Both the position numbers and the translations under genes were made by a program. Positions 3,376-17,716 of a DNA stretch of 19,350 nucleotides are shown piece by piece. Positions within the stretch are counted from its first letter, which is position 1. Every line of letters starts with the position of its first letter. Where the stretch lies: IMG/VR virus record IMGVR_UViG_2778261129_000006; one strand, 5' to 3'. This DNA comes from a virus. Lineage: Duplodnaviria > Heunggongvirae > Uroviricota > Caudoviricetes. The notes below the pieces were generated by a model. It had not been told where the DNA came from and searched no databases. It saw only the letters and a program-made list of their open reading frames with translations.

Positions 3376-3674
3376 TGTCCTGTTCTCATTCAGTTGTATT
3401 ACTGAATAACGCCTTAAAAATCGCCGTTATGAAAAATGGCGATTTGTCTCTTATTCAACTTTGCCTTGATAAAGAAAAACGCGACATAACTGAATCTGTT
3501 ATCGCGATTTATCAGAATGAATTAAACCTCCTGTCTGATGTGGTCAATTTACTTGTTAAACGCGCTGTATTCCACAAGCAAATTTCCTCAGTGGATGAAC
3601 TGACAAAATTAACGACAGAACTTGCCAATTATTGCGCTGATGTATCCAGGAAACTTAACGATAAAAGGAGCTGA
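3375..3674 (+). CDS. Small hypothetical early protein (99 aa), P2 orf81-like position
   Basis: ATG at 3375 overlapping the upstream TGA, GGGGAGG SD. The ORF-track TTG at 3372 is less likely. Confidence 0.6.
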   Translation: MSCSHSVVLLNNALKIAVMKNGDLSLIQLCLDKEKRDITESVIAIYQNELNLLSDVVNLLVKRAVFHKQISSVDELTKLTTELANYCADVSRKLNDKRS

Positions 3675-3901: not shown

Positions 3902-4173
3902 GTATTCGTATTGAAATTGGCGAACGTTATGTCGTTACCAGTGACAGCTTTCAGTTTATTCTCCACGAGAAAAAGAGAGCGGAAAGCGGTAAAAACGCCG
4001 GTCAGGAATGGCTGGCGGTGGTTGGTTATTACCCGAAATTAAGCCAGCTCGTTTCCGGCCTGATGCATCACGATATTCTTACCGGAAGCGCAAAGTCTTT
4101 TGCTGATTTAAACGCGCAGGTTGAGCAACTCAGCAAGCGTTGTTCAGAGGCTTTTGGCTCATATGGCCGTTAA
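3898..4173 (+). CDS. Small hypothetical early protein (91 aa), P2 orf83-like position
   Basis: ATGA overlap with the upstream stop. Its stop at 4171-4173 overlaps the A start region. Confidence 0.6.
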   Translation: MSIRIEIGERYVVTSDSFQFILHEKKRAESGKNAGQEWLAVVGYYPKLSQLVSGLMHHDILTGSAKSFADLNAQVEQLSKRCSEAFGSYGR

Positions 4174-6445
4174 AGCCTCCGGGCGTTTTGTCCCTCCGTC
4201 AGCATTTGCCGCAGGCACCGGTAAGACGTTTACCGGTGCTTATGCATGGAACGCGCCACGCGAGGCCGTCGGGCGCGAAAGACCCCTTACACGTGACGAG
4301 ATGCGTCAGGTGCAAGGTGTTTTATCCACGATTAACCGCCTGCCTTACTTTTTGCGCTCGCTGTTTACTTCACACTATGACTACATCCGGCGCAATAAAA
4401 GCCCGGTGCACGGGTTTTATTTCCTCACATCCACTTTTCAGCGTCGTTTATGGCCGCGCATTGAGCGTGTGAATCAGCGCCATGAAATGAACACCGACGC
4501 GTCGTTGCTGTTTCTGGCAGAGCGTGACCACTATGCGCGCCTGCCGGGAATGAATGACAAGGAGCTGAAAAAGTTTGCCGCCCGTATCTCATCGCAGCTT
4601 TTCATGATGTATGAGGAACTCAGCGATGCCTGGGTGGATGCACATGGCGAAAAAGAATCGCTGTTTACGGATGAGGCGCAGGCTCACCTCTATGGTCATG
4701 TTGCTGGCGCTGCACGTGCTTTCAATATTTCCCCGCTTTACTGGAAAAAATACCGTAAAGGACAGATGACCACGAGGCAGGCATATTCTGCCATTGCCCG
4801 TCTGTTTAACGATGAGTGGTGGACTCATCAGCTCAAAGGCCAGCGTATGCGCTGGCATGAGGCGTTACTGATTGCTGTCGGGGAGGTCAATAAAGACCGT
4901 TCTCCTTATGCCAGTAAACATGCCATTCGTGATGTGCGTGCACGCCGCCAGGCAAATCTGGAATTTCTTAAATCGTGTGATCTCGAAAACAGGGAAACCG
5001 GCGAGCGCATCGACCTTATCAGTAAGGTGATGGGCAGTATTTCTAATCCTGAAATTCGCCGGATGGAGCTGATGAACACCATTGCCGGTATTGAGCGTTA
5101 CGCCGCAGCAGAGGGTGATGTGGGGATGTTTATCACGCTGACCGCGCCGTCAAAGTATCACCCGACACGTCAGGTTGGAAAAGGCGAAAGTAAAACCGTC
5201 CAGCTAAATCACGGCTGGAACGATGAGGCATTTAATCCAAAGGATGCGCAGCGTTATCTCTGCCGTATCTGGAGCCTGATGCGCACGGCATTCAAGGATA
5301 ATGATTTACAGGTCTACGGTTTGCGTGTCGTCGAGCCACATCACGACGGAACGCCGCACTGGCATATGATGCTTTTTTGTAATCCGCGCCAGCGTAACCA
5401 GATTATCGAAATCATGCGTCGCTATGCGCTCAAAGAGGATGGCGACGAAAGAGGAGCCGCGCGAAACCGTTTTCAGGCAAAACACCTTAATCGGGGCGGT
5501 GCTGCGGGGTATATCGCGAAATACATCTCAAAAAACATCGACGGCTATGCACTGGATGGTCAGCTCGATAACGATACCGGCAGACCTCTGAAAGATACTG
5601 CCGCGGCTGTTACTGCATGGGCGTCAACGTGGCGCATCCCGCAATTTAAAACGGTTGGTCTGCCGACAATGGGGGCTTACCGTGAACTACGCAAATTGCC
5701 TCGCGGCGTCAGCATTGCTGATGAGTTTGACGAACGCGTCGAGGCTGCACGCGCTGCCGCAGACAGTGGCGATTTTGCGTTGTATATCAGTGCGCAGGGT
5801 GGGGCAAATGTTCCGCGCGATTGCCAGACTGTCAGAGTCGCCCGTAGCCCGTCGGATGAAGTTAACGAGTACGAGGAAGAAGTCGAGAGAGTGGTCGGCA
5901 TTTACGCGCCGCATCTCGGCGCGCGTCATATTCATATCACCAGAACGACGGACTGGCGCATTGTGCCGAAAGTTCCGGTCGTGGAGCCTTTGACTTTAAA
6001 AAGCGGCATCGCCGCGCCTCGGAGTCCTGTCAATAACTGTGGAAAGCTCACCGGTGGTGATACTTCGTTATCGGCTCCCACACCGACTGAGCATGCTGCA
6101 GCGGTGTTAAATTTTATAGATGAAGGGATTCTAAGTTGGACCGAGCCAGGCATTATGAAGGTACTTAGAGACTTATTGAGTAATGAACTGAAATGCAGTA
6201 ATCGTTCACAGCAGAGCTTTACTCCTTTCAATGGTCGAAGCTACTTTCCTGCCCCATCCGCCCGGTTGACAAGGCAGGAGAGAAAGACTATCCCGAAAAT
6301 TAAGGTTCTTCTTGCACAAAGTGACATTCAGGCTAGTTATTGGGAGCTTGAAGCTCTCGCTCGCGGAGCTGTTTTGGATTTTGGGCATAAGCGTTTTAAA
6401 TTTGATACCGATATCGACTTTTTTGACAGACAGCGTGAGTGGTAG
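4163..6445 (+). CDS. A: Replication initiation endonuclease, P2 gpA-like rolling-circle initiator (760 aa)
   Basis: Start at ATG 4163 (MAVKASGRFVPP), not the ORF-track ATG at 4121. HUH-type motifs HWHMMLF and AAGYIAKYISK. Length close to P2 A. This is not a P4 alpha primase-helicase. Confidence 0.9.
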   Translation: MAVKASGRFVPPSAFAAGTGKTFTGAYAWNAPREAVGRERPLTRDEMRQVQGVLSTINRLPYFLRSLFTSHYDYIRRNKSPVHGFYFLTSTFQRRLWPRIERVNQRHEMNTDASLLFLAERDHYARLPGMNDKELKKFAARISSQLFMMYEELSDAWVDAHGEKESLFTDEAQAHLYGHVAGAARAFNISPLYWKKYRKGQMTTRQAYSAIARLFNDEWWTHQLKGQRMRWHEALLIAVGEVNKDRSPYASKHAIRDVRARRQANLEFLKSCDLENRETGERIDLISKVMGSISNPEIRRMELMNTIAGIERYAAAEGDVGMFITLTAPSKYHPTRQVGKGESKTVQLNHGWNDEAFNPKDAQRYLCRIWSLMRTAFKDNDLQVYGLRVVEPHHDGTPHWHMMLFCNPRQRNQIIEIMRRYALKEDGDERGAARNRFQAKHLNRGGAAGYIAKYISKNIDGYALDGQLDNDTGRPLKDTAAAVTAWASTWRIPQFKTVGLPTMGAYRELRKLPRGVSIADEFDERVEAARAAADSGDFALYISAQGGANVPRDCQTVRVARSPSDEVNEYEEEVERVVGIYAPHLGARHIHITRTTDWRIVPKVPVVEPLTLKSGIAAPRSPVNNCGKLTGGDTSLSAPTPTEHAAAVLNFIDEGILSWTEPGIMKVLRDLLSNELKCSNRSQQSFTPFNGRSYFPAPSARLTRQERKTIPKIKVLLAQSDIQASYWELEALARGAVLDFGHKRFKFDTDIDFFDRQREW

Positions 6446-6533
6446 TTGAAAAAACGGTTGAACGGGGTAACAATATGTTATTGTTGAGGAATTGTTTGTT
6501 ATGGTTTAATTTTTATACACGGCAGAAAAGCAT

Positions 6534-7757
6534 ATGAGCATGGTTGAATGGATAAGCCACGAGAAAAAAGATAGCCTGATACTATTTGTACATGGATTAA
6601 ATGGTGGTTTGGAAACATGGAACTTTAATAAAGAAATTTCATTTCCAAAACTATTAGCAGAAGATGAAGATATTAGCAACGTATTTGATATTGCATGTTT
6701 CAATTATTTTACTAAATTCACACAAACGTATGCTAAAACGTCAGGATTCTTGGCTCGTATTTTCTTTAAGAAAAATAAGTTAGAGAGAAATTTACCAACT
6801 GATGAAATAGCTGAGTTATTGTATACTGAGATTAGAGTAACACTAAGTGATTACTCTCGAATTATAATAATCGCCCATAGTATGGGGGGGTTAATATCAA
6901 AAAATCTAATTCTAAAAAAAGTTGAGCATGAGGAACAATCTAATATAATTGGATTCATTTCGTTAGCAGTCCCTCACTTTGGTGCTAAATTAGCGAATAT
7001 AACTTCAATGGTATCTTCAAATGCTCAGTTAGTAGATCTTGGATTGTTAAGTGAAGCGACTGATACATTGAATAGGCGCTGGATAAATTGTAGCAAAAAA
7101 CTTCCTATCACTAGATATGTTTATGGATCTCATGACACTATAGTCGATAAAAAAAGCGCATTACCGATGGATAGTGAACGACATAACTCAATTGCAGTTA
7201 ATGAAGGGCATAGCTCAATTTGCAAGCCCGAAAATAGCTCGTCTACAGTGTTTGTTGCGGTAAAGCAATTTATTCAGCAGATAAATTTAGAAGCACCCAA
7301 GAAGATTTGCGTTGAGCGTTTTTCTGATGATAAACAATATGATAATGAGTATTTCGTCTTAAAAATGATTGTCGCAGATATACATCAGGATATCGCTCTG
7401 CATGCAAAGGAATATTATTATAATGCTGAGCTTGCGAGAAATATTTTTACGAGTGATTACGATAGAAAACAACTTGGTCATTTGTATTCTAAAATAAGGG
7501 AGATTTACCAGGAAGAGTATGAGCAATACATTGCAAATTCAATTTCCCCAGATAAATTTATTGCTGCTGTTCATAGACGAATAACCCAGGAGGATAAGTC
7601 GTCGTTAGATTCTCTTATAAAAAGTTTGGAAACGATACATAAGAAAGGAATGTTGCATCAACTGGCTAACAAAAATGACAGGGATATTGTCTGGTCATCT
7701 GAAACCAGCGTAGAAACTTTGGAGCAATTACGGCGAGGTAATCATGAAGAAAAATAA
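6534..7757 (+). CDS. Alpha/beta-hydrolase-fold effector protein with a helical C-terminal domain (407 aa); Lamassu LmuA-like / ABC-3C effector candidate
   Basis: Oxyanion-hole motif LILFVHGLNGG. Nucleophile elbow IIIAHSMGGL (GxSxG). Downstream acid and His candidates (GSHDTIVD, NEGHSSI). AT-rich. First gene of the cargo operon. Confidence 0.75.
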   Translation: MSMVEWISHEKKDSLILFVHGLNGGLETWNFNKEISFPKLLAEDEDISNVFDIACFNYFTKFTQTYAKTSGFLARIFFKKNKLERNLPTDEIAELLYTEIRVTLSDYSRIIIIAHSMGGLISKNLILKKVEHEEQSNIIGFISLAVPHFGAKLANITSMVSSNAQLVDLGLLSEATDTLNRRWINCSKKLPITRYVYGSHDTIVDKKSALPMDSERHNSIAVNEGHSSICKPENSSSTVFVAVKQFIQQINLEAPKKICVERFSDDKQYDNEYFVLKMIVADIHQDIALHAKEYYYNAELARNIFTSDYDRKQLGHLYSKIREIYQEEYEQYIANSISPDKFIAAVHRRITQEDKSSLDSLIKSLETIHKKGMLHQLANKNDRDIVWSSETSVETLEQLRRGNHEEK

Positions 7758-7896
7758 CTTGCCGTATATACCTCTTGATGAAGAGTATAGTTTGAATTTT
7801 GCTATGCTTGCCATTGCTATATCTATATTATCTCATAGCAAAAAAGGAGTGTTGTCATTAGATATTAATAAAATACAAATTTTTATGTATCTGTGA
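7744..7896 (+). CDS. Small ORF (50 aa); possibly the N-terminal part of a frameshifted middle-component gene
   Basis: ATG at 7744 with GAGGT SD 5 nt upstream. Overlaps the hydrolase gene end by 14 nt. Its TGA (7894-7896) overlaps the GTG start of the next ORF. Confidence 0.35.
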   Translation: MKKNNLPYIPLDEEYSLNFAMLAIAISILSHSKKGVLSLDINKIQIFMYL

Positions 7897-8258
7897 TAAA
7901 AAATCCATCAAAAATTGATTGTGCTCTTACAGTTTCGGGGAAAAAGCCTGCTTGTGTCGAGTCCCAGTTAACTTATACAATAAAGAGTTTTTCATCAAAT
8001 GTAGATATCTTATTCGACAATTCCAAAGTGAAATATCTTATAAAAATTATGTCATTGCGGGGATTGCTCTCAGCTGAGAAAAAAAATAATGAGAGTGTTA
8101 AATTATTTTTATCTGAAAAAGGTAAGGAATTTGCTAGCTCATTGACTGATGGATATTTTAAAGAAATAAAACGACTAGCCGAAGCATTGTTACCGCTACA
8201 AGCATTGCCTACCTCTAAGTTAAACTCTGTTATAAACAAAGTCTTCAAGGAGAAATGA
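7893..8258 (+). CDS. Small middle-component protein (121 aa from GTG); LmuC-like candidate
   Basis: Frame opens at 7872; first start is GTG at 7893 with no clear SD. Stop overlaps the ATPase start (ATGA at 8255-8258). A small coupled gene between effector and ATPase. Confidence 0.5.
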   Translation: MIKNPSKIDCALTVSGKKPACVESQLTYTIKSFSSNVDILFDNSKVKYLIKIMSLRGLLSAEKKNNESVKLFLSEKGKEFASSLTDGYFKEIKRLAEALLPLQALPTSKLNSVINKVFKEK

Positions 8259-10225
8259 TGAAATCATATCTCAATATCAATAGTTTGATTCTTGTTGGCG
8301 TTCGTAAAAACTACGTCACTACTTTTTATAAAGGTCTCAATGTTATCTACGGAGACTCTGACACAGGTAAGTCAAGTATTCTGGAGTTTATTAATTATCT
8401 TTTAGGTGCTAGTTCTATAGATTTAGCAGATGAAATAAAAACATCAGTAAACTATGCTGCTCTTGAAGTAGTGATCAATGATACTGTATTCACAATCGTA
8501 AGAGATATCTATGATCATAAAAAATCAATAGAAGTTTATCGTTGTAAGTTTGATGATTTACATAAACACTTTCCGAAAAAATACGCTCCTAATTATAGCC
8601 CCTTATCAAATGTTGATGGCGTTTTTTCAGAGTTTTTACTTGATAGTCTTAATTTTCCAAAAATTGAAATTAAGGTGTCTCCTTCTAAAGCACATTCACA
8701 GATGCGCAGGTTAAGCTTTAGAAATATATATAAATTTGTTTATGTAAGTCAGGATGATATTGGTAGTAAATCATTCTTACGATTGGAGGATTGGTCCCGT
8801 TACGCATTTACGAAAGAAGTTTTTAAATACATGTTCAATGTGTTGGATGAAAGCATCGCCAGACTCCAAGGTGAAATATCTGCAAAAAGTAGTTTAGTAA
8901 CGGAACTAAATAAGAAGTATCAGATAATATCTGAATTTCTTCGCGATACAGACTATGAAACAATTGAATCAATTGATGATGAGATTAATAGGATAGATCT
9001 TATTTTAGAAGAACTTGTTGCAGGTTTGTCTGCTCTCGATAAAAATATGAAAGCGGATTCCATGCAGTATACAGAATTGAAAGATGCCCACAATTTTATT
9101 TCGCTTAAATACAAGGAGTGCATATTAAATATTAGCACGCTTGAGGATAAGATTGATAAATATTCGCGGTTAAAAAATGACTATGATAATGATATTGAAA
9201 AACTCAAAGCGATTAAAACAGCAAATTCTCGCATTGGTGTATTGGATAAGGAAGTATTTTCCTGTCCGATCTGTGATAGCCACATTAAAATAGATGATTC
9301 CGATTTTCCATTTGAAATTTCATCAGAAAAAGATCTTAATGAAGAGTTGAATTCACTTAGTCGACGTAGACGAAATATTAATGACATGATCTCAGAAATG
9401 TCATTTAAATTAAAAAAAGAATCTGGTTATAAAAAAGAATTAGATGAACAACTTGACGAGTTGAGAGAGTTAATTGACGAAGAAAGCCAGTCAATGATTA
9501 CACCATTCTTGACTCAGAGAGATTTTTATATTAAAGAGATATCAAAAAACGAGAAGGTTAGGGAGCAGTTAGTAAAAGATTTGAAGGTTAGAAACCAGCA
9601 AGAGGAACTGCTTGAAAAGCATCAGGTACTGATAAAAGATATTGAAACATTAACTGAACGCTTGGATGCGTTAAAGAAAAACGCACCTAGTATGGAAGGC
9701 ATTTTACAAGGTTTAGGTGATAGATTTAGTCAGTATTTGAAGGGTATTAATATCAAAAACAGAACGGGGATAAAAATCTCTGAAAGATATTACACCCCTG
9801 TTATAAGAGGAAAGGAATATTTTAAAATAACGTCCGGAGGTTTGAGAACTATTTCTTCTATTGGGTATCTTTTGTCTATTCTTGATTATGCAATAGACCA
9901 TAATGTTAACCATCCTTTACTTTTGATATTTGATACGGTTGGTAAATATTTAGGGAAACAGACCAAGGAAAAATACTCAAAAGAAACTCTTGCAGTCGAG
10001 GATGACCTTGAGGGGATGTCAGACCCGATGAAGTATCAAAATATTTATGAGCAACTATTGAATACAGTTCAAAAAGCAGAAAGAAAAAATGTTCCGTGCC
10101 AGATTATATTAGTTGATAATGATTTGCCTAATTCGTTTTCTACTGGTGAACTTTCGAATATTATCGCTCATTATAGCTCGGTTGGTGAGGATGGTTTGCC
10201 TTTAGGTTTAATTGATGACCTTTAA
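8255..10225 (+). CDS. SMC/Rad50-like ABC ATPase with coiled-coil insert (656 aa); Lamassu LmuB-like candidate
   Basis: Degenerate Walker A YGDSDTGKSS (8348-8377). Long heptad-rich coiled-coil region with a central CPIC motif (9263-9274). ABC signature-like TSGGLR (9829-9846). Walker B-like LLLIFD followed by T, not E. CAAGGAGA SD. Confidence 0.8.
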   Translation: MMKSYLNINSLILVGVRKNYVTTFYKGLNVIYGDSDTGKSSILEFINYLLGASSIDLADEIKTSVNYAALEVVINDTVFTIVRDIYDHKKSIEVYRCKFDDLHKHFPKKYAPNYSPLSNVDGVFSEFLLDSLNFPKIEIKVSPSKAHSQMRRLSFRNIYKFVYVSQDDIGSKSFLRLEDWSRYAFTKEVFKYMFNVLDESIARLQGEISAKSSLVTELNKKYQIISEFLRDTDYETIESIDDEINRIDLILEELVAGLSALDKNMKADSMQYTELKDAHNFISLKYKECILNISTLEDKIDKYSRLKNDYDNDIEKLKAIKTANSRIGVLDKEVFSCPICDSHIKIDDSDFPFEISSEKDLNEELNSLSRRRRNINDMISEMSFKLKKESGYKKELDEQLDELRELIDEESQSMITPFLTQRDFYIKEISKNEKVREQLVKDLKVRNQQEELLEKHQVLIKDIETLTERLDALKKNAPSMEGILQGLGDRFSQYLKGINIKNRTGIKISERYYTPVIRGKEYFKITSGGLRTISSIGYLLSILDYAIDHNVNHPLLLIFDTVGKYLGKQTKEKYSKETLAVEDDLEGMSDPMKYQNIYEQLLNTVQKAERKNVPCQIILVDNDLPNSFSTGELSNIIAHYSSVGEDGLPLGLIDDL

Positions 10226-10353: not shown

Positions 10354-10372
10354 GGCGAGGCGGGGAAAGCAC
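10354..10372. other. cos cohesive-end site, P2-type 19-mer GGCGAGGCGGGGAAAGCAC
   Basis: Exact match to the recalled P2 cohesive end. Lies in a GC/GT-rich non-coding region between the cargo and portal gene Q, as in P2. Confidence 0.6.
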
Positions 10373-10540: not shown

Positions 10541-11515
10541 TCAGCCGTTGTCAGTGTCCAGTGAGTAGTTTTTAAAGCGGATGACCTCCTGACCGAGCCA
10601 GCCGTTTATCTCACGGATCCTGTCCTGTAACGGGATAAGCTCATTGCGGACAAAGACCTTTGCCACTTTCTCAATATCACCCAGCGACCCGACGTTCTCC
10701 GGCTTGCCGCCCATCAACTGAAAGGGGATGCGGTGCGCGTCCAGCAGGTCTGCGGCACTGGCTTTTTTGATATTAAAAAAATCGTCCTTCGTCGCCACTT
10801 CACTGAGCGGGATAATTTTAATGCCGTCGGCTTTTCCCTGTGGGGCATAGAGAAACAGGTTTTTAAAGTTGTTGCGGCCTTTCGACTTCACCATGTTTTC
10901 GCGAAGCATTTCGATATCGTTGCGATCCTGCACGGCATCAGTGACGTACATGATGTATCCGGCATGTGCGCCGTTTTCGTAATACTTGCGGCGGAACAGC
11001 GTGGCCGACTCATTCAGCCAGGCAGAGTTAAGGGCGCTGAGATATTCCGGCAGGCCGTACAGCTCCTGATTAATATCGGGCTCCAGCAGGTGAAACACGG
11101 AACCGGGCGCGAAGGCTGTCGGTTCGTTGAAGGACGGCACCCACCAGTAAACATCCTCCTCCACGCCACGGCGGGTATATTTTGCCGGTGAGGTTTCCAG
11201 TCTGATGACCTTACCGGTGGTGCTGTAACGCTTTTCCAGAAACGCATTACCGAACACCAGAAAATCCAGCACAAAGCGGCTGAAATCCTGCTGGGAAAGT
11301 CGCCGAAAATCGCCAGTGTGCATCAGTTCGGTCTGTCGGAAGAAACCCGGAAAGACGGTAAGAAAATTGATTATCCGGCGCGTCCTCTGCTCGGCTTTAC
11401 CGGTGAGGATGTGCAGATGATTGAAGAGATTATCCTGGCTCACCTTGAGCGTTAGTTTTATCCAGGCAGAGGCTGATGCGCAATTAAACATTGAGCGGCC
11501 ATGCTGGTCGCTCAA
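10541..11515 (-). CDS. Q: Capsid portal protein, P2 gpQ-like; probably N-terminally truncated
   Basis: C-terminal region recalled as P2 portal. The longest frame starts only at TTG 11515 (first ATG at 11491), with an in-frame stop just upstream. 324 aa against about 344 aa recalled for P2 Q. Confidence 0.7.
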   Translation of the reverse strand: MSDQHGRSMFNCASASAWIKLTLKVSQDNLFNHLHILTGKAEQRTRRIINFLTVFPGFFRQTELMHTGDFRRLSQQDFSRFVLDFLVFGNAFLEKRYSTTGKVIRLETSPAKYTRRGVEEDVYWWVPSFNEPTAFAPGSVFHLLEPDINQELYGLPEYLSALNSAWLNESATLFRRKYYENGAHAGYIMYVTDAVQDRNDIEMLRENMVKSKGRNNFKNLFLYAPQGKADGIKIIPLSEVATKDDFFNIKKASAADLLDAHRIPFQLMGGKPENVGSLGDIEKVAKVFVRNELIPLQDRIREINGWLGQEVIRFKNYSLDTDNG

Positions 11516-11526
11516 TGTTTAGAGGC

Positions 11527-12312
11527 TTATGAGTGATTTTTATTTGATGCTTTGTATTCTACAACCTTCTTATTGGCGTAAAGGAATTTTGTATATGACA
11601 GGAATATAACCAGACCTGAAATGAAATAGATGAGGGATATTATTAATAATGCTTTTTTTTGGCTGTTATTATCTTTAATTTCCTGACTTAACCATTCCGA
11701 GTCCTCCTCGTTTAGCTGTAAGAGCTTATTGCAGGCGATCTCAGGAAGTGTGTCTTTTATAAATATGTTTCGTAGCCTCTTGCAATCGGCAAGGCTATAA
11801 GTTTTATTGAATTCAACTGTTTTATTGTTGAAGGATAAAAGAACTTTGTCACTATAAACATAGTACATCATATTTTTATATGGTATGCCTATGGCATCTC
11901 TTACTATAGCGGATTGTTTGTTGTGTATATAACATGCGAAGAGAATATAAATAATGCTGGACAGAATTACAATTATTGTTTTAATTATGTGTGGTGGTTT
12001 TGTTATGTCACCCCAGAAGCGAGTAAGAAAAAAATACGATGTTTTTAGTTTTCCATCAATCAGCCCCTGCTGTATCATTCTCACATCTTCGATGCCTGAT
12101 ACATTGATTCCGTTAATTATTTTAAATAGTTGAATGTCGCGCCATTTTTTGTCGAGCATTTTTAACTTTCTGTCTGAATACTCAAAATTGAAATGATGTG
12201 CAATAAACCTCATAAGATTACTTTTACCAAAGGTAATAAATGTTAATGCTATTAATAAAAATAGATACAAAGAGATAAACCACCACGCATTAGTCACATT
12301 ATCACTGAACAT
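11527..12312 (-). CDS. Membrane protein with three predicted TM segments (261 aa); unknown function; AT-rich cargo
   Basis: ATG at 12312 with GAGGAG SD 6 nt upstream. Hydrophobic helices at the N-terminus (WWFISLYLFLLIALTFITF), middle (IIKTIIVILSSIIYILFACYI) and C-terminus (ALLIISLIYFISGLVIFLSY). Base composition unlike the flanking phage DNA. Confidence 0.7.
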   Translation of the reverse strand: MFSDNVTNAWWFISLYLFLLIALTFITFGKSNLMRFIAHHFNFEYSDRKLKMLDKKWRDIQLFKIINGINVSGIEDVRMIQQGLIDGKLKTSYFFLTRFWGDITKPPHIIKTIIVILSSIIYILFACYIHNKQSAIVRDAIGIPYKNMMYYVYSDKVLLSFNNKTVEFNKTYSLADCKRLRNIFIKDTLPEIACNKLLQLNEEDSEWLSQEIKDNNSQKKALLIISLIYFISGLVIFLSYTKFLYANKKVVEYKASNKNHS

Positions 12313-12395: not shown

Positions 12396-12830
12396 ATGAA
12401 CACTCTCGCAAATATTCAGGAACTCGCGCGCGCACTGCGCAACATGATTCGTACCGGCCTTGTCGTCGAAACCAACCTTAAAGCCGGTCGCTGCCGTGTG
12501 CAGACCGGTGGCATGTGCACTGACTGGCTTCAGTGGCTGACCCATCGTGCCGGACGTTCGCGCACATGGTGGGCACCTTCCGTGGGGGAACAGGTGCTGA
12601 TTCTGGCTGTGGGCGGTGAACTCGACACGGCGTTCGTTCTGCCGGGGATTTATTCCGGCGATAACCCCGCGCCGTCTGCGTCGGCGGATGCCCTGCATAT
12701 CCGTTTCCCTGACGGGGCGGTGATTGAGTATGAACCCGAAACCAGTGCACTCACGGTAAGAGGAGCTTCTCTGGTGGTGTCTACGTGCTGTTGTCAGCCA
12801 GGTGGATTTGTTAATGGAACGCTTTGTTGA
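12396..12830 (+). pseudogene. V: Baseplate spike gpV fragment: first ~115 codons V-like, then unrelated sequence
   Basis: MNTLANIQELARALRNMIRTG...EYEPETSALTV as recalled for the P2 V N-terminus. The ORF then reads RGASLVVSTCCCQPGGFVNGTLC and stops; P2 V is about 211 aa. Confidence 0.7.
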
Positions 12831-13081: not shown

Positions 13082-14196
13082 TTATATTTTTTCGCAAAAA
13101 GAAGAATAATCTCCACAGATTAAGCAACTGACAAGCTCTCTTTGTGCGGGATATATTTGGGACTCATTTACAAGCCCTGTATATGGTAAGAGTGATTTAT
13201 GTATCAAGTTAAAAACGTGAGACTTCTCATTAGTTGTTAAACTTTTTTTGGATAATATGGATGCCAAGTGCTCAACGCAAATAACCAGCCATGCATTAAA
13301 CATTTTTACTATTTCTGCTTCATTTTTATTGCTTGATAAGATATAAATCAAACCTGTTTGTAATACCAAGGCTCTTTGTTTAATGGAGAAAGATGTTTTA
13401 GATAGATGTGGTTCTTCATGGCGATTCAGAGAGTAGTAGCCCTTTCTTGCCAGTATAGATATCGTATTAGCTACAGTTAGGCTCTGGCAAGAAAAAAGCA
13501 TATCCTCATAGACTGAAATTGATGGGTTAAATAAGATGTTGTTATTGATTAGCAACTCTCTTTTAAAGAACTTGAAGATTTTTAATGATCTAAAAAGATG
13601 GTTTTTTATAATATCTGCTTTATTCGTGTCTGCCTTAAATGGGCGTACAGGAACCCCTCTCCCTGTAGAGGAAACCTGCTTGAAATATACAATGTCACTA
13701 TTGTTTTTATAAGCCATCTGAATACCATCGGACAGTAAGTCAGAGTGAATGGAATCATCAGAGTCTAAGAAAAACACATAGCGACCTTTTGCGGATTTTA
13801 TTCCCTCATTTCGCGGCGCTGATGCATTCCCTGAACCAACTGCTCTACGGATAATACGATAATTTATTTCTCTCGAAATGTTATATTCAATGGCGGCAAT
13901 GCTCCTGTCAGTGGAACAGTCATCAATGAAAATAACTTCAAAACAATTTTTATCTATAGTCTGATTGTTTAAAGATTTAATGCATTCGAGAATAAGGGTT
14001 TCTCGGTTGTGAACCGGAATAACAACTGAGACATCAAAGGGATAAATAGAATTAATTTCATTAATTACCGTTGTGATTTTTAGAAGAGAAGTATGCAGGG
14101 CTGTTGTTAAAACAGCAGAAGATGAAATGTTTTCTTTTTTAGTGTTGCCTTTTATAGTATAATAAGGGCAATTATTTCGTAGTACAAAATCCACAT

Positions 14197-14200
<4 letters not shown>
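13082..14200 (-). CDS. Family-2 (GT-A fold) glycosyltransferase (372 aa from GTG)
   Basis: VSVVIPVHNRE motif, FIDDCSTD and FLDSDD (DxD) motifs. AT-rich. The only start in frame is GTG at 14200, overlapping the stop of the upstream small ORF, with no obvious SD. Confidence 0.8.
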
Positions 14201-16636: not shown

Positions 16637-17416
16637 ATGGCAATGCCGCGCAAACTCAAGTTAATGAACGTCTTTCTGAACGGCTACAGCTATCAGGGCG
16701 TTGCAAAGTCCGTCACGCTGCCAAAACTGACCCGTAAGCTCGAAAACTATCGCGGTGCGGGGATGAACGGCAGCGCACCGGTAGACCTCGGCCTTGATGA
16801 CGATGCGCTGTCAATGGAGTGGTCGCTCGGTGGATTCCCGGATTCGGTTATCTGGGAGCTTTACGCCGCAACCGGTGTGGATGCCGTGCCGATTCGTTTT
16901 GCAGGCTCTTACCAGCGCGACGATACAGGCGTAACGGCAAAGTGGTTACACACCAAAGACCCGAAACCGCAAAAGCAGAAGGTAAAACTGAAACGCAAAA
17001 AGAAAGAGAAACACCTGCGCGCACTGGAGCACCCGAACGCGAAACCGGTCAGGCAGAAGAAAGCGCCTAAAGTACCGGAAGCGCGTGAAGGTGAATACAT
17101 GGCCGGTGAGGCTGACAACGTTTTTGCCCTGACCACGGTATATGCCACGAAAGCGCAGGCCATGCGCGCCGCTCAGGCGAAGTGGGATAAGCTGCAACGG
17201 GGCGTTGCGGAGTTCTCCATCAGTCTGGCTACCGGTCGTGCTGATATTTACACGGAAACACCGGTTAAAGTGTCAGGCTTTAAGCGCGTCATAGACGAGC
17301 AGGACTGGACAATCACTAAGGTGACACATTTTCTGAATAATAGCGGCTTCACGACGTCCCTGGAGCTTGAGGTCAGGCTTTCTGATGTGGAGTACGAAAC
17401 AGAAGATGATGAGTGA
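16637..17416 (+). CDS. Chimeric ORF: tail tube gpFII N-terminus (~97 aa) fused in frame to a Lys-rich segment and the gpD C-terminus (259 aa)
   Basis: N-terminus MAMPRKLKLMNVFLNGYSYQGV...SYQRDDTG recalled as P2 FII (172 aa in P2). C-terminus ...WTITKVTHFLNNSGFTTSLELEVRLSDVEYETEDDE resembles the late-control D protein (yegZ-like). E, T and U are absent. Confidence 0.65.
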   Translation: MAMPRKLKLMNVFLNGYSYQGVAKSVTLPKLTRKLENYRGAGMNGSAPVDLGLDDDALSMEWSLGGFPDSVIWELYAATGVDAVPIRFAGSYQRDDTGVTAKWLHTKDPKPQKQKVKLKRKKKEKHLRALEHPNAKPVRQKKAPKVPEAREGEYMAGEADNVFALTTVYATKAQAMRAAQAKWDKLQRGVAEFSISLATGRADIYTETPVKVSGFKRVIDEQDWTITKVTHFLNNSGFTTSLELEVRLSDVEYETEDDE

Positions 17417-17497
17417 TGTTTTTATTTTATCTGTTTGTTTTATAAGGATAATTTAACTAAAATGGCACCATCAACCAAACCGGAAGAGGTGCTCGCG

Positions 17498-17716
17498 ATG
17501 TTTCATTGTCCTTTATGCCAGCATGCCGCACATGCGCGTACAAGCCGCTATATCACTGACACGACAAAAGAGCGTTATCATCAGTGCCAGAACGTGAATT
17601 GCAGCGCCACGTTCATCACTTATGAGTCGGTACAGCGATACATCGTGAAGCCGGGAGAAGTCCACGCCGTAAGACCGCACCCGTTGCCGTCAGGGCAGCA
17701 AATTATGTGGATGTAA
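17498..17716 (+). CDS. ogr: Late gene transcription activator Ogr, zinc-finger protein (72 aa)
   Basis: Start at ATG 17498 (MFHCPLCQHAAHARTSRYI...) with GAAGAGG SD; ORF-track start 17435 is an extension. Cys4 motif CPLC...CQNVNC. Last prophage gene before attR, as in P2. Confidence 0.9.
   Translation: MFHCPLCQHAAHARTSRYITDTTKERYHQCQNVNCSATFITYESVQRYIVKPGEVHAVRPHPLPSGQQIMWM

Follow-up and report, generated by a model that had tools for sequence, protein, structure and literature searches.

The window analysed here is a stretch of 19,350 nucleotides that belongs to a defective P2-like prophage, located between yegR and a U32-peptidase gene on an E. coli B-lineage chromosome. Between its replication gene and its cohesive end, the prophage carries an AT-rich cassette of three genes, which raises two questions: which system do these genes encode, and is this copy still able to work? 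We consider it likely that the cassette is a type II (lmuA-lmuC-lmuB) short Lamassu system of the lipase effector class, carried as prophage cargo and, owing to a frameshift in lmuC, most probably non-functional.

Genomic slot and layout of the cassette

The cassette and its borders comprise the following features (window coordinates, strand):

4163-6445, + strand: P2-type replication endonuclease gene A (gpA), left edge of the cargo slot
6446-6474, + strand: candidate promoter, a weak sigma-70-like site (TTGAAA-17-AACAAT) in the 88-nt gap 5' of lmuA
6534-7757, + strand: lmuA, effector gene (407 aa)
7744-8258, + strand: lmuC, middle gene, total span of two fragments in the window copy
8255-10225, + strand: lmuB, ATPase gene (656 aa); the RefSeq start in B strains is the second ATG, at 8258
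10354-10372, + strand: cohesive-end sequence GGCGAGGCGGGGAAAGCAC (P2 cos), right edge of the cargo slot
10541-11299, - strand: truncated P2 portal gene Q, a pseudogene (RefSeq; Pfam Phage_portal, 2.7e-13)

At the left edge, gene A carries the RefSeq label 'replication endonuclease' at matching coordinates in REL606 and strain B, and Pfam Phage_GPA matches the same gene in a Logan contig. The right edge is an exact 19-nt match, with a chance expectation of 0.01 occurrences, to the P2 cos sequence of the P2/P4 literature. Portal gene Q, listed by RefSeq as 'phage portal protein, incomplete' in both REL606 and B, is truncated, and the prophage is therefore considered defective. The cargo lies between the end of gpA (6445) and cos or the Q remnant, which is the position of the P2-like defence hotspot, and in the O157 strain 644-PT8 an intact P2-like prophage holds the cassette at this very position. 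The tin/old cargo slot named in the initial annotation is hereby confirmed.

The three genes are co-directional and form one operon. The translational coupling that had been proposed is reflected in their overlapping starts and stops, as lmuA and lmuC share 14 nt, and the stop of lmuC and the start of lmuB overlap as ATGA. The AT-richness noted earlier likewise holds, with a GC content of 0.31-0.35 in the cassette (6501-10000) compared with 0.51-0.55 in gene A. The candidate promoter agrees with the sigma-70 consensus at 9 of 12 positions, in a region with fewer promoter-like sites than shuffled sequences, and is thus weak evidence.

Effector, ATPase and identity of the system

In LmuA, an alpha/beta-hydrolase with a helical C-terminal domain had been expected, and both parts were found:

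6873-6890, + strand: nucleophile elbow AHS116MGG
7134-7136, + strand: D201 of the catalytic triad
7209-7211, + strand: H226 of the catalytic triad
7326-7700, + strand: ABC-3C CTD8, C-terminal helical domain (aa 265-389; Pfam PF20284, E = 9.2e-36)

The N-terminal domain (aa 10-208) is lipase-like, with matches to Pfam DUF676 (2.8e-09), PGAP1 and Abhydrolase_1, and CTD8 scores 123.3 bits against a cut-off of 27.6; all Pfam matches of LmuA exceed their gathering scores. Almost the entire protein (aa 3-406) is covered by the PADLOC LmuA model PDLC03851 (E = 1.3e-108, 361.8 bits). None of the residues S116, D201, H226, H20 and G21 varies among 33 homologues, which reach down to 43% identity, and REL606 and strain B encode exactly the same protein as the window (WP_000063128.1). 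A sequence search against PDB chains gave only a marginal esterase match (E = 0.1). Going by the Pfam family names alone, the substrate is presumably a lipid.

The third protein, LmuB, shows all the parts of an SMC/Rad50-like ATPase:

8351-8374, + strand: Walker A GDSDTGKS (aa 33-40)
aa ~199-326 and 358-476, + strand: coiled coil
9263-9274, + strand: Zn-hook C337-P-I-C340
9830-9841, + strand: signature TSGG (aa 526-529)
9920-9937, + strand: Walker B LLIFDT (aa 556-561)

Walker A, signature, Walker B and C337/C340 are invariant in 36 homologues. This includes Lys39, and since GDSDTGKS conforms to the canonical GxxxxGK[ST], the description of the Walker A motif as degenerate has to be withdrawn. 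The ABC ATPase with a coiled-coil insert is well founded, as PADLOC LmuB (PDLC03862) matches aa 2-656 with E = 1.2e-233 and 775.1 bits, and the structure prediction proposed in the initial annotation gave an AF2 model (pLDDT 86) in which the ABC head is split, the coiled coil runs antiparallel and a CxxC lies at the apex. In Foldseek, the best PDB matches of this model are the Lamassu LmuB chains 9uxh_F (2.7e-21) and 9hqx_B (1.6e-19), followed by further LmuB chains (9hqu, 9nyg) and then by Rad50, SMC and JetC. With phmmer, LmuB had no match among PDB chains, and the link to solved Lamassu systems comes from the fold search only. Short Lamassu systems are characterized by an LmuB of ~600-650 aa with a Walker B of the form hhhhD[Q/S/T/E] (PMC12663957), and the 656 aa and LLIFD560-T561 of the window protein fit this description.

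The locus hence combines an SMC/Rad50-like LmuB, an LmuA effector with its C-terminal domain and an lmuC homologue between the two genes, which are the features of Lamassu, and it combines a CTD effector and a middle component beside an ABC ATPase, which are those of ABC-3C. RefSeq also names the genes as ABC-three component system proteins, and by its domain profiles the cassette is the CTD8 + MC4 combination in ABC-3C terms. Together, the PADLOC and Pfam profiles (including those of LmuC, given below) and the fold evidence uphold the proposed order of effector, small protein and SMC-like ATPase. With a Ser-Asp-His alpha/beta-hydrolase as LmuA and a CxxC Zn hook in LmuB, the system would fall under the 'Lipase' subtype of DefenseFinder, where a 'lipase' effector class is defined within short Lamassu. 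The preprint by Millman et al. (10.1101/2022.05.11.491447) lists hydrolases and lipases among the LmuA effectors. The earlier suggestion of an uncharacterized variant is unsupported, as PADLOC models cover the family, Pfam holds CTD8 and MC4, RefSeq labels the genes and lipase LmuA effectors have been published; the cassette is an already catalogued Lamassu.

Could the genes serve a purpose other than immunity, either as a prophage DNA-repair or maintenance module built from an SbcC/Rad50-like ATPase and an accessory esterase, or as a toxin module that stabilizes the prophage? Some databases call LmuB homologues 'exonuclease SbcC' or 'Rad50', a weak match to the SbcC-like family PHROG 77 exists (5e-09), and Lamassu has been proposed to descend from SbcCD. 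However, the Lamassu-specific models score hundreds of bits above those for SbcC, Rad50 and SMC, no Mre11/SbcD nuclease partner is present, and CTD8 and MC4 are specific to ABC-3C systems. As the locus also lies in a known P2 defence hotspot and an anti-phage phenotype has been demonstrated for related systems, we regard a non-immune role as highly improbable.

For the defence system, phenotype and mechanism may be transferred by family membership, with the individual steps taken from solved nuclease-type Lamassu systems (10.1101/2025.03.14.643221, 10.1101/2025.06.23.660979, PMC12663957), for which sequestration, DNA-end sensing and effector oligomerization are described. In an intact copy, two LmuB protomers joined by the CxxC Zn hook and one LmuC would hold a single, inert LmuA by its C-terminal domain. 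LmuB and LmuC would detect an invading phage or plasmid by its DNA ends or replication intermediates, and ATP hydrolysis would set LmuA free. Freed LmuA would then oligomerize via its C-terminal domain, which would activate the Ser116-Asp201-His226 hydrolase, and the active enzyme would presumably attack membrane lipids, so that the infected cell dies (abortive infection).

The frameshifted adaptor gene and its distribution

A small middle protein had been described for this locus, but the window copy of lmuC is split by a TG duplication into two open reading frames:

7744-7896, + strand: lmuC 5' fragment (50 aa), terminated by a TGA that the frameshift introduces
7892-7895, + strand: TGTG, a tandem duplication of TG, the frameshifting lesion
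7893-8258, + strand: lmuC 3' fragment (121 aa), ABC-3C middle component 4, whose GTG start overlaps the TGA (GTGA)

In a pairwise alignment with E. coli B CP115178, the window reads CTGTGATA where intact alleles read CTGATA. The 5' fragment matches positions 2-47 of the 168 in PADLOC LmuC PDLC03869 (E = 4.7e-13) and aligns with residues 1-50 of intact homologues of 170 aa. The 3' fragment takes over at position 48 of the same model and extends to 166 (E = 3.1e-34, 116 bits); it also matches positions 50-170 of 170 in PHROG 1894 and positions 22-132 of 133 in Pfam MC4 (PF20290; 6.1e-19, 69.1 bits against a cut-off of 28.1). A fold search with the LmuC model returned weak MarR-type winged-helix matches only (E >= 0.013) and did not retrieve the solved LmuC chains, and a sequence search of the repaired protein against PDB chains found no match; the assignment to LmuC therefore rests on the HMMs.

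All 38 aligned homologues are single open reading frames of 168-184 aa, nearly all of 168-171 aa. The split in the window falls at residue 50/51, within the nearly invariant segment QIFMYL|IKNPSK and within helix 41-52 of the AF2 model, and inspection of the sequence revealed no Shine-Dalgarno motif upstream of the GTG of the 121-aa frame. In the Lamassu systems tested so far, deletion of lmuC abolished defence, as did mutations in the LmuC interface. With lmuC broken in a conserved helix and its 3' fragment left to a GTG without a ribosome-binding site, the window copy is most probably inactive.

The lesion itself is no sequencing error, as it is present in two independent sequences, the window and REL606, and at least 1000 contigs carry the 121-aa product. 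Programmed frameshifting was rejected too, since a slippery heptamer is missing, reading in the other frame would destroy the conserved FMYL motif and the lesion occurs in one laboratory lineage only.

Among 5426 complete E. coli genomes, 96 carry the same cassette, mostly O157:H7, and none of the BL21 genomes matches it. The TG duplication is common to the window and REL606 and absent from 11 other B-type genomes and from the O157 genomes; it is probably a recent, laboratory-lineage pseudogenization shared with REL606. Three C>T changes specific to REL606 are missing from the window, which carries two private G>A changes, and its variant DUF5405 protein was found on draft contigs only. With no BL21 genome matching the cassette, the readings of the window as REL606, an LTEE clone or BL21 were all rejected. 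Between the B and O157 alleles, dN/dS amounts to 0.13 for lmuA, 0.21 for lmuC and 0.11 for lmuB, which indicates real genes under selection. The cassette was seen only in chromosomal prophages, with no match in a collection of sequenced phages by megablast (nucleotide) or tblastn (protein); the PHROG families 1846, 1894 and 1637 exist for it.

The system could nevertheless still work if both fragments were made, by reinitiation at the GTG over the TGA, and reassembled into an adaptor. No residue is lost, since only a chain break and one added Met separate the fragments from the intact protein, and the GTGA overlap would permit termination-reinitiation. Furthermore, the LmuA and LmuB proteins equal those of B strains with intact lmuC, and the sole change inside their genes is synonymous. 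The GTG without Shine-Dalgarno motif, the break within a nearly invariant segment and predicted core helix, and the single-frame homologues argue against a working split adaptor. In addition, restriction to one laboratory sub-lineage is what a recent loss, neutral or beneficial, would produce, and not what would be seen with an adapted split gene. We therefore rate it as unlikely, though clearly less so than a non-immune role. Were it true, the REL606-type sub-lineage would carry a working Lamassu whose adaptor is split in nature, or one with altered control of its lipase effector, and LmuC would tolerate a cut inside a conserved helix.

With inactivation by the frameshift as the preferred reading, the REL606 sub-lineage, whose lmuC is frameshifted, stands against ATCC 11303, other B strains and O157:H7, where the operon is intact. 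Intact copies are present in classical E. coli B strains, which routinely serve as permissive hosts for T phages; this suggests a weak, narrow or silenced activity even of the intact system. A 2026 preprint ('H-NS silences antiviral immunity...') names BL21, P2-like and Lamassu, and a search of it gave no mention of lmuC, a frameshift or REL606.

As such, the locus is a textbook case of a catalogued defence system in a known P2 hotspot and of little fundamental importance. Defence-system finders may, however, call REL606-type strains positive for Lamassu even though their system is probably dead, and the two alleles, only two bases apart, would form a natural control for this lipase-type Lamassu at native expression.

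Comparison with known systems

With P2 old/tin and other cargo of the A-cos hotspot, the cassette shares the slot and the role as anti-phage cargo of a prophage, whereas its proteins and its mechanism bear no relation to theirs. Rad50/SbcC and SMC ATPases have the split ABC head, antiparallel coiled coil and CxxC Zn hook in common with the window LmuB, but its coiled coil is much shorter and an Mre11/SbcD partner is missing; this likeness is at the level of the fold only (E = 1e-5 to 1e-11, compared with 1e-21 for LmuB). No difference in architecture exists to the ABC-3C class with CTD8 + MC4; type II Lamassu went by the name ABC-3C in earlier computational work.

Vibrio cholerae DdmABC (Vc-Cap4) and Salmonella enterica LmuACB (PDB 9hqu, 9hqx, 9nyg, 9uxh) have the same gene order, a helical C-terminal domain in LmuA and a small helical or winged-helix-like LmuC. 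Their LmuB fold is shared as well (Foldseek E = 1e-16 to 3e-21), at an identity of only 13-16%. In contrast, their effector is a DNA-cleaving Cap4 nuclease instead of a Ser-Asp-His hydrolase, and the Zn hook of the window LmuB is missing from Vc LmuB.

Lamassu Ec-Lipase is a short Lamassu of clade H with a Zn hook from E. coli, which was validated against lambda-vir (PMC12663957). Neither the Walker A Lys nor the His of the lipase is dispensable for its defence, and over-induction is toxic unless the His is mutated (PMC12663957). Both systems are short type II systems from E. coli with a lipase or alpha/beta-hydrolase LmuA, an LmuC and a CxxC Zn hook LmuB, and the two residues needed in Ec-Lipase are invariant among the homologues of the window system. 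The proteins are nevertheless different ones, as residue numbering sets LmuB K42 and LmuA H215 of Ec-Lipase apart from K39 and H226 in the window; for the same disagreement in numbering, Ec-Lipase was equated neither with the window system nor with the E. coli paralogues P0152 and P0026 (~53-55% identity). Finally, lmuC is intact in Ec-Lipase and frameshifted in the window.

Gene order, P2 cargo slot and identity of the cassette

The cassette comprises three ORFs reading in one direction, with a GC content of 31–35% vs 45–55% in its flanks, and it is arranged as follows:

4163–6445: P2-type replication endonuclease gene (gene A), left flank of the cassette
6534–7757, plus strand: lmuA (effector), 407-aa ORF
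7744–8258, plus strand: lmuC (middle gene), present as two ORFs
7744–7896, plus strand: 5′ ORF of lmuC, 50 aa
7893–8258, plus strand: 3′ ORF of lmuC, 121 aa, GTG start
8255–10225, plus strand: lmuB (SMC-like ATPase), 656-aa ORF

The overlap of lmuA with lmuC is 14 nt, and that of lmuC with lmuB is ATGA. The right flank holds a truncated portal gene and, at 10354–10372, an exact copy of the 19-nt cos sequence of P2 (chance expectation 0.01). The initial annotation had placed a three-gene cassette in the tin/old slot of a P2-like prophage, and this description of place and layout is correct, because the ORF coordinates, the overlaps, the GC content and the P2 flanks (gene A on the left, cos and the portal remnant on the right) all agree.

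LmuA was matched by PADLOC over aa 3–406 (1.3e-108), the Pfam domains DUF676, PGAP1 and Abhydrolase_1 each scored above their gathering thresholds, and the ABC-three-component (ABC-3C) domain CTD8 was found as well (Pfam, 9e-36). In an alignment of 33 homologues with identities down to 43%, H20-G21, S116 (within AHSMGG), D201 and H226 were unchanged; these residues are the predicted oxyanion motif (H20-G21) and catalytic triad (S116/D201/H226) of an alpha/beta-hydrolase. The family names DUF676, PGAP1 and LCAT suggest a membrane lipid as the target.

The PADLOC match of LmuB covers aa 2–656 (1.2e-233), and K39, T526-S-G-G529, D560-T561 and C337/C340 are invariant among 36 aligned homologues. 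Its Walker A motif, GDSDTGKS, had been called degenerate, but it fits the canonical GxxxxGK[ST], with the lysine kept in all 36 homologues. In an AlphaFold2 model (pLDDT 86), the ABC head is split and an antiparallel coiled coil (about 199–326 and 358–476) has the CxxC at its apex, which is of low confidence. Searching the PDB with this model by Foldseek returned solved Lamassu LmuB structures at the top (9uxh_F, 2.7e-21; 9hqx_B, 1.6e-19), followed by 9hqu, 9nyg and 9ux7, and then by Rad50, SMC and JetC. The Walker B motif LLIFDT and the size of 656 aa agree with the 'short' Lamassu class as defined in PMC12663957.

Because the PADLOC and Pfam matches, the invariant motifs, the LmuB fold matches and the length and Walker B motif coincide, the locus belongs to the short, type II Lamassu systems, its effector being lipase-like and its LmuB bearing a Zn hook; its ABC-3C class is CTD8/MC4. 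The initial identification as Lamassu thus holds on PADLOC, Pfam, motif and Foldseek evidence.

The lmuC frameshift and its distribution

In the initial annotation, it had gone unnoticed that the middle gene is broken into the 50-aa and 121-aa ORFs. Both fragments share one PADLOC LmuC match (model positions 2–47 and 48–166 of 168), and the 121-aa fragment contains the ABC-3C middle component 4 (Pfam, 6e-19). When aligned, the window reads CTGTGATA where E. coli B strain CP115178 reads CTGATA, so that the lesion is a tandem TG duplication at 7892–7895, by which an immediate TGA arises. It is common to the window and REL606, and absent from the O157:H7 alleles and from 11 further B-type genomes, ATCC 11303 among them.

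All 38 aligned LmuC homologues are single ORFs of 168–184 aa, nearly all of 168–171 aa. The break lies in an almost invariant stretch of this alignment (QIFMYL|IKNPSK), inside helix 41–52 of the AF2 model (pLDDT 82) of an intact homologue with 86% identity. A clear Shine-Dalgarno sequence precedes the normal starts of both lmuC and lmuB, whereas the 121-aa ORF has only a GTG that overlaps the stop, without one. Conceivably, the two fragments, which together span nearly the whole LmuC model, could still reassemble into a working protein. In tested Lamassu systems, defence was lost on lmuC deletion (Millman et al., 10.1101/2022.05.11.491447), and in published work LmuC touches LmuA, LmuB and DNA, with interface mutants being without activity. 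From the lesion and these deletions and mutants, it is most likely that the Lamassu copy of the window is inactive.

The cassette was found in 96 of 5426 complete E. coli genomes, in 12 at ≥99% identity (nearly all E. coli B strains) and in 84 at 95–99% (mostly O157:H7). In every case, it is located on the chromosome and adjoins the replication endonuclease; in the O157 strain 644-PT8, the P2-like prophage around it, likewise located at yegR, appears to be complete. The intact system would appear to be a real gene set under selection: the B and O157 alleles are 97.4% identical, with dN/dS values of 0.13 (lmuA), 0.21 (lmuC) and 0.11 (lmuB), similar to that of the adjoining gene A (0.07).

Sporadic independent disruptions occur in other strains. 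In strain 472, lmuA is divided into ORFs of 360 and 768 bp, in OkiPb01683 lmuC is annotated with 399 instead of 513 bp, and in ATCC 43889 and SS17 the cassette length is off by one base. The length differed from 3690 by a non-multiple of three in 4 of 60 sampled records. Some of these disrupted copies may be assembly errors.

Lineage and decay of the prophage

Collinearity of the window with REL606 and strain B extends over 12.7 kb. At three positions, 1450, 4457 (gene A codon 113, giving R113C in its replication endonuclease) and 7839, REL606 differs from both the window and strain B by a C>T change, while two G>A changes, at 3628 and 8629, are the window's own; all five are transitions. The window also has a 4.8-kb deletion (junction 12754–12764, 11-bp overlap; 15865 to 20665 in the REL606 locus), in which W, J, I and the greater part of H are missing, so that baseplate gene V runs into the 3′ end of the tail-fibre gene. 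This junction was not found in any complete RefSeq E. coli genome, and the variant DUF5405 protein has matches on draft contigs only. By sequence, the window is placed in the E. coli B lineage and shares the lmuC lesion with REL606; the strain is not REL606, as follows from the base changes, the deletion and the DUF5405 variant.

In a further ORF (16637–17416, plus strand), a tail-tube (FII) domain at the N-terminus is followed by a gpD fragment at the C-terminus, and therefore another internal deletion removed E, T, U and the larger part of D; an ogr homologue (17435–17716) and then a chromosomal U32 peptidase gene follow. The prophage is heavily decayed, whereas its Lamassu cargo is nearly intact. 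Two other AT-rich genes are present:

11527–12312, minus strand: 261-aa ORF, 33% GC, three hydrophobic segments
13082–14200, minus strand: AT-rich family-2 glycosyltransferase, with hits to PHROGs for GtrB-like O-antigen conversion

The first occupies the site of the lost P2 head and lysis genes. Its hydrophobic segments are probably membrane-spanning; it falls into no family of Pfam or PADLOC, PHROG 2407 (function unknown) is its sole match, and it could be another prophage moron. The glycosyltransferase, with the tail-fibre remnant on one side and sheath gene FI on the other, occupies the place of the second variable region of P2.

Proposed mechanism and known relatives

While domains, catalytic and ATPase motifs, LmuB fold, gene order, slot and frameshift are shown by the analysis, the steps of the mechanism are drawn from solved nuclease-type Lamassu (10.1101/2025.03.14.643221, 10.1101/2025.06.23.660979, PMC12663957). 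By analogy, a dimer of LmuB would, together with one LmuC, sequester a single LmuA via its CTD; the sensing of DNA ends or replication intermediates would follow, and LmuA, liberated by ATP hydrolysis, would oligomerise and become active.

The validated E. coli system Ec-Lipase depends on its Walker A lysine and on the histidine of its lipase, and over-induction is toxic except with the histidine mutated (PMC12663957). Since its residue numbering (K42 and H215) differs from that of the window (K39 and H226), it is a different protein, and no experiment on the exact family of the window turned up in the literature covered. A second abundant lipase-type family occurs in E. coli and Klebsiella (P0152 and P0026, with 736 and 476 member sequences), ~53–55% identical to that of the window; therefore, several lipase-type lineages circulate in enterobacteria.

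The suggestion of an uncharacterized variant is not borne out, as effector class, middle component, ATPase and P2 slot have each been described. Hydrolase effectors among Lamassu were listed by Millman and colleagues, who also noted that the prophage hotspots of Rousset et al. contain members of Lamassu (10.1101/2022.05.11.491447), and the P2 hotspot listing of the latter includes an SMC-domain system. The cassette proteins are already modelled or named in PADLOC, Pfam, PHROGs and RefSeq. The cassette was hence over-rated in the initial annotation: it belongs to the known lipase-type Lamassu systems and lies in a known P2 hotspot, with lmuC broken here, and the sole specific novelty in this known kind of system is the lineage-restricted lmuC frameshift.
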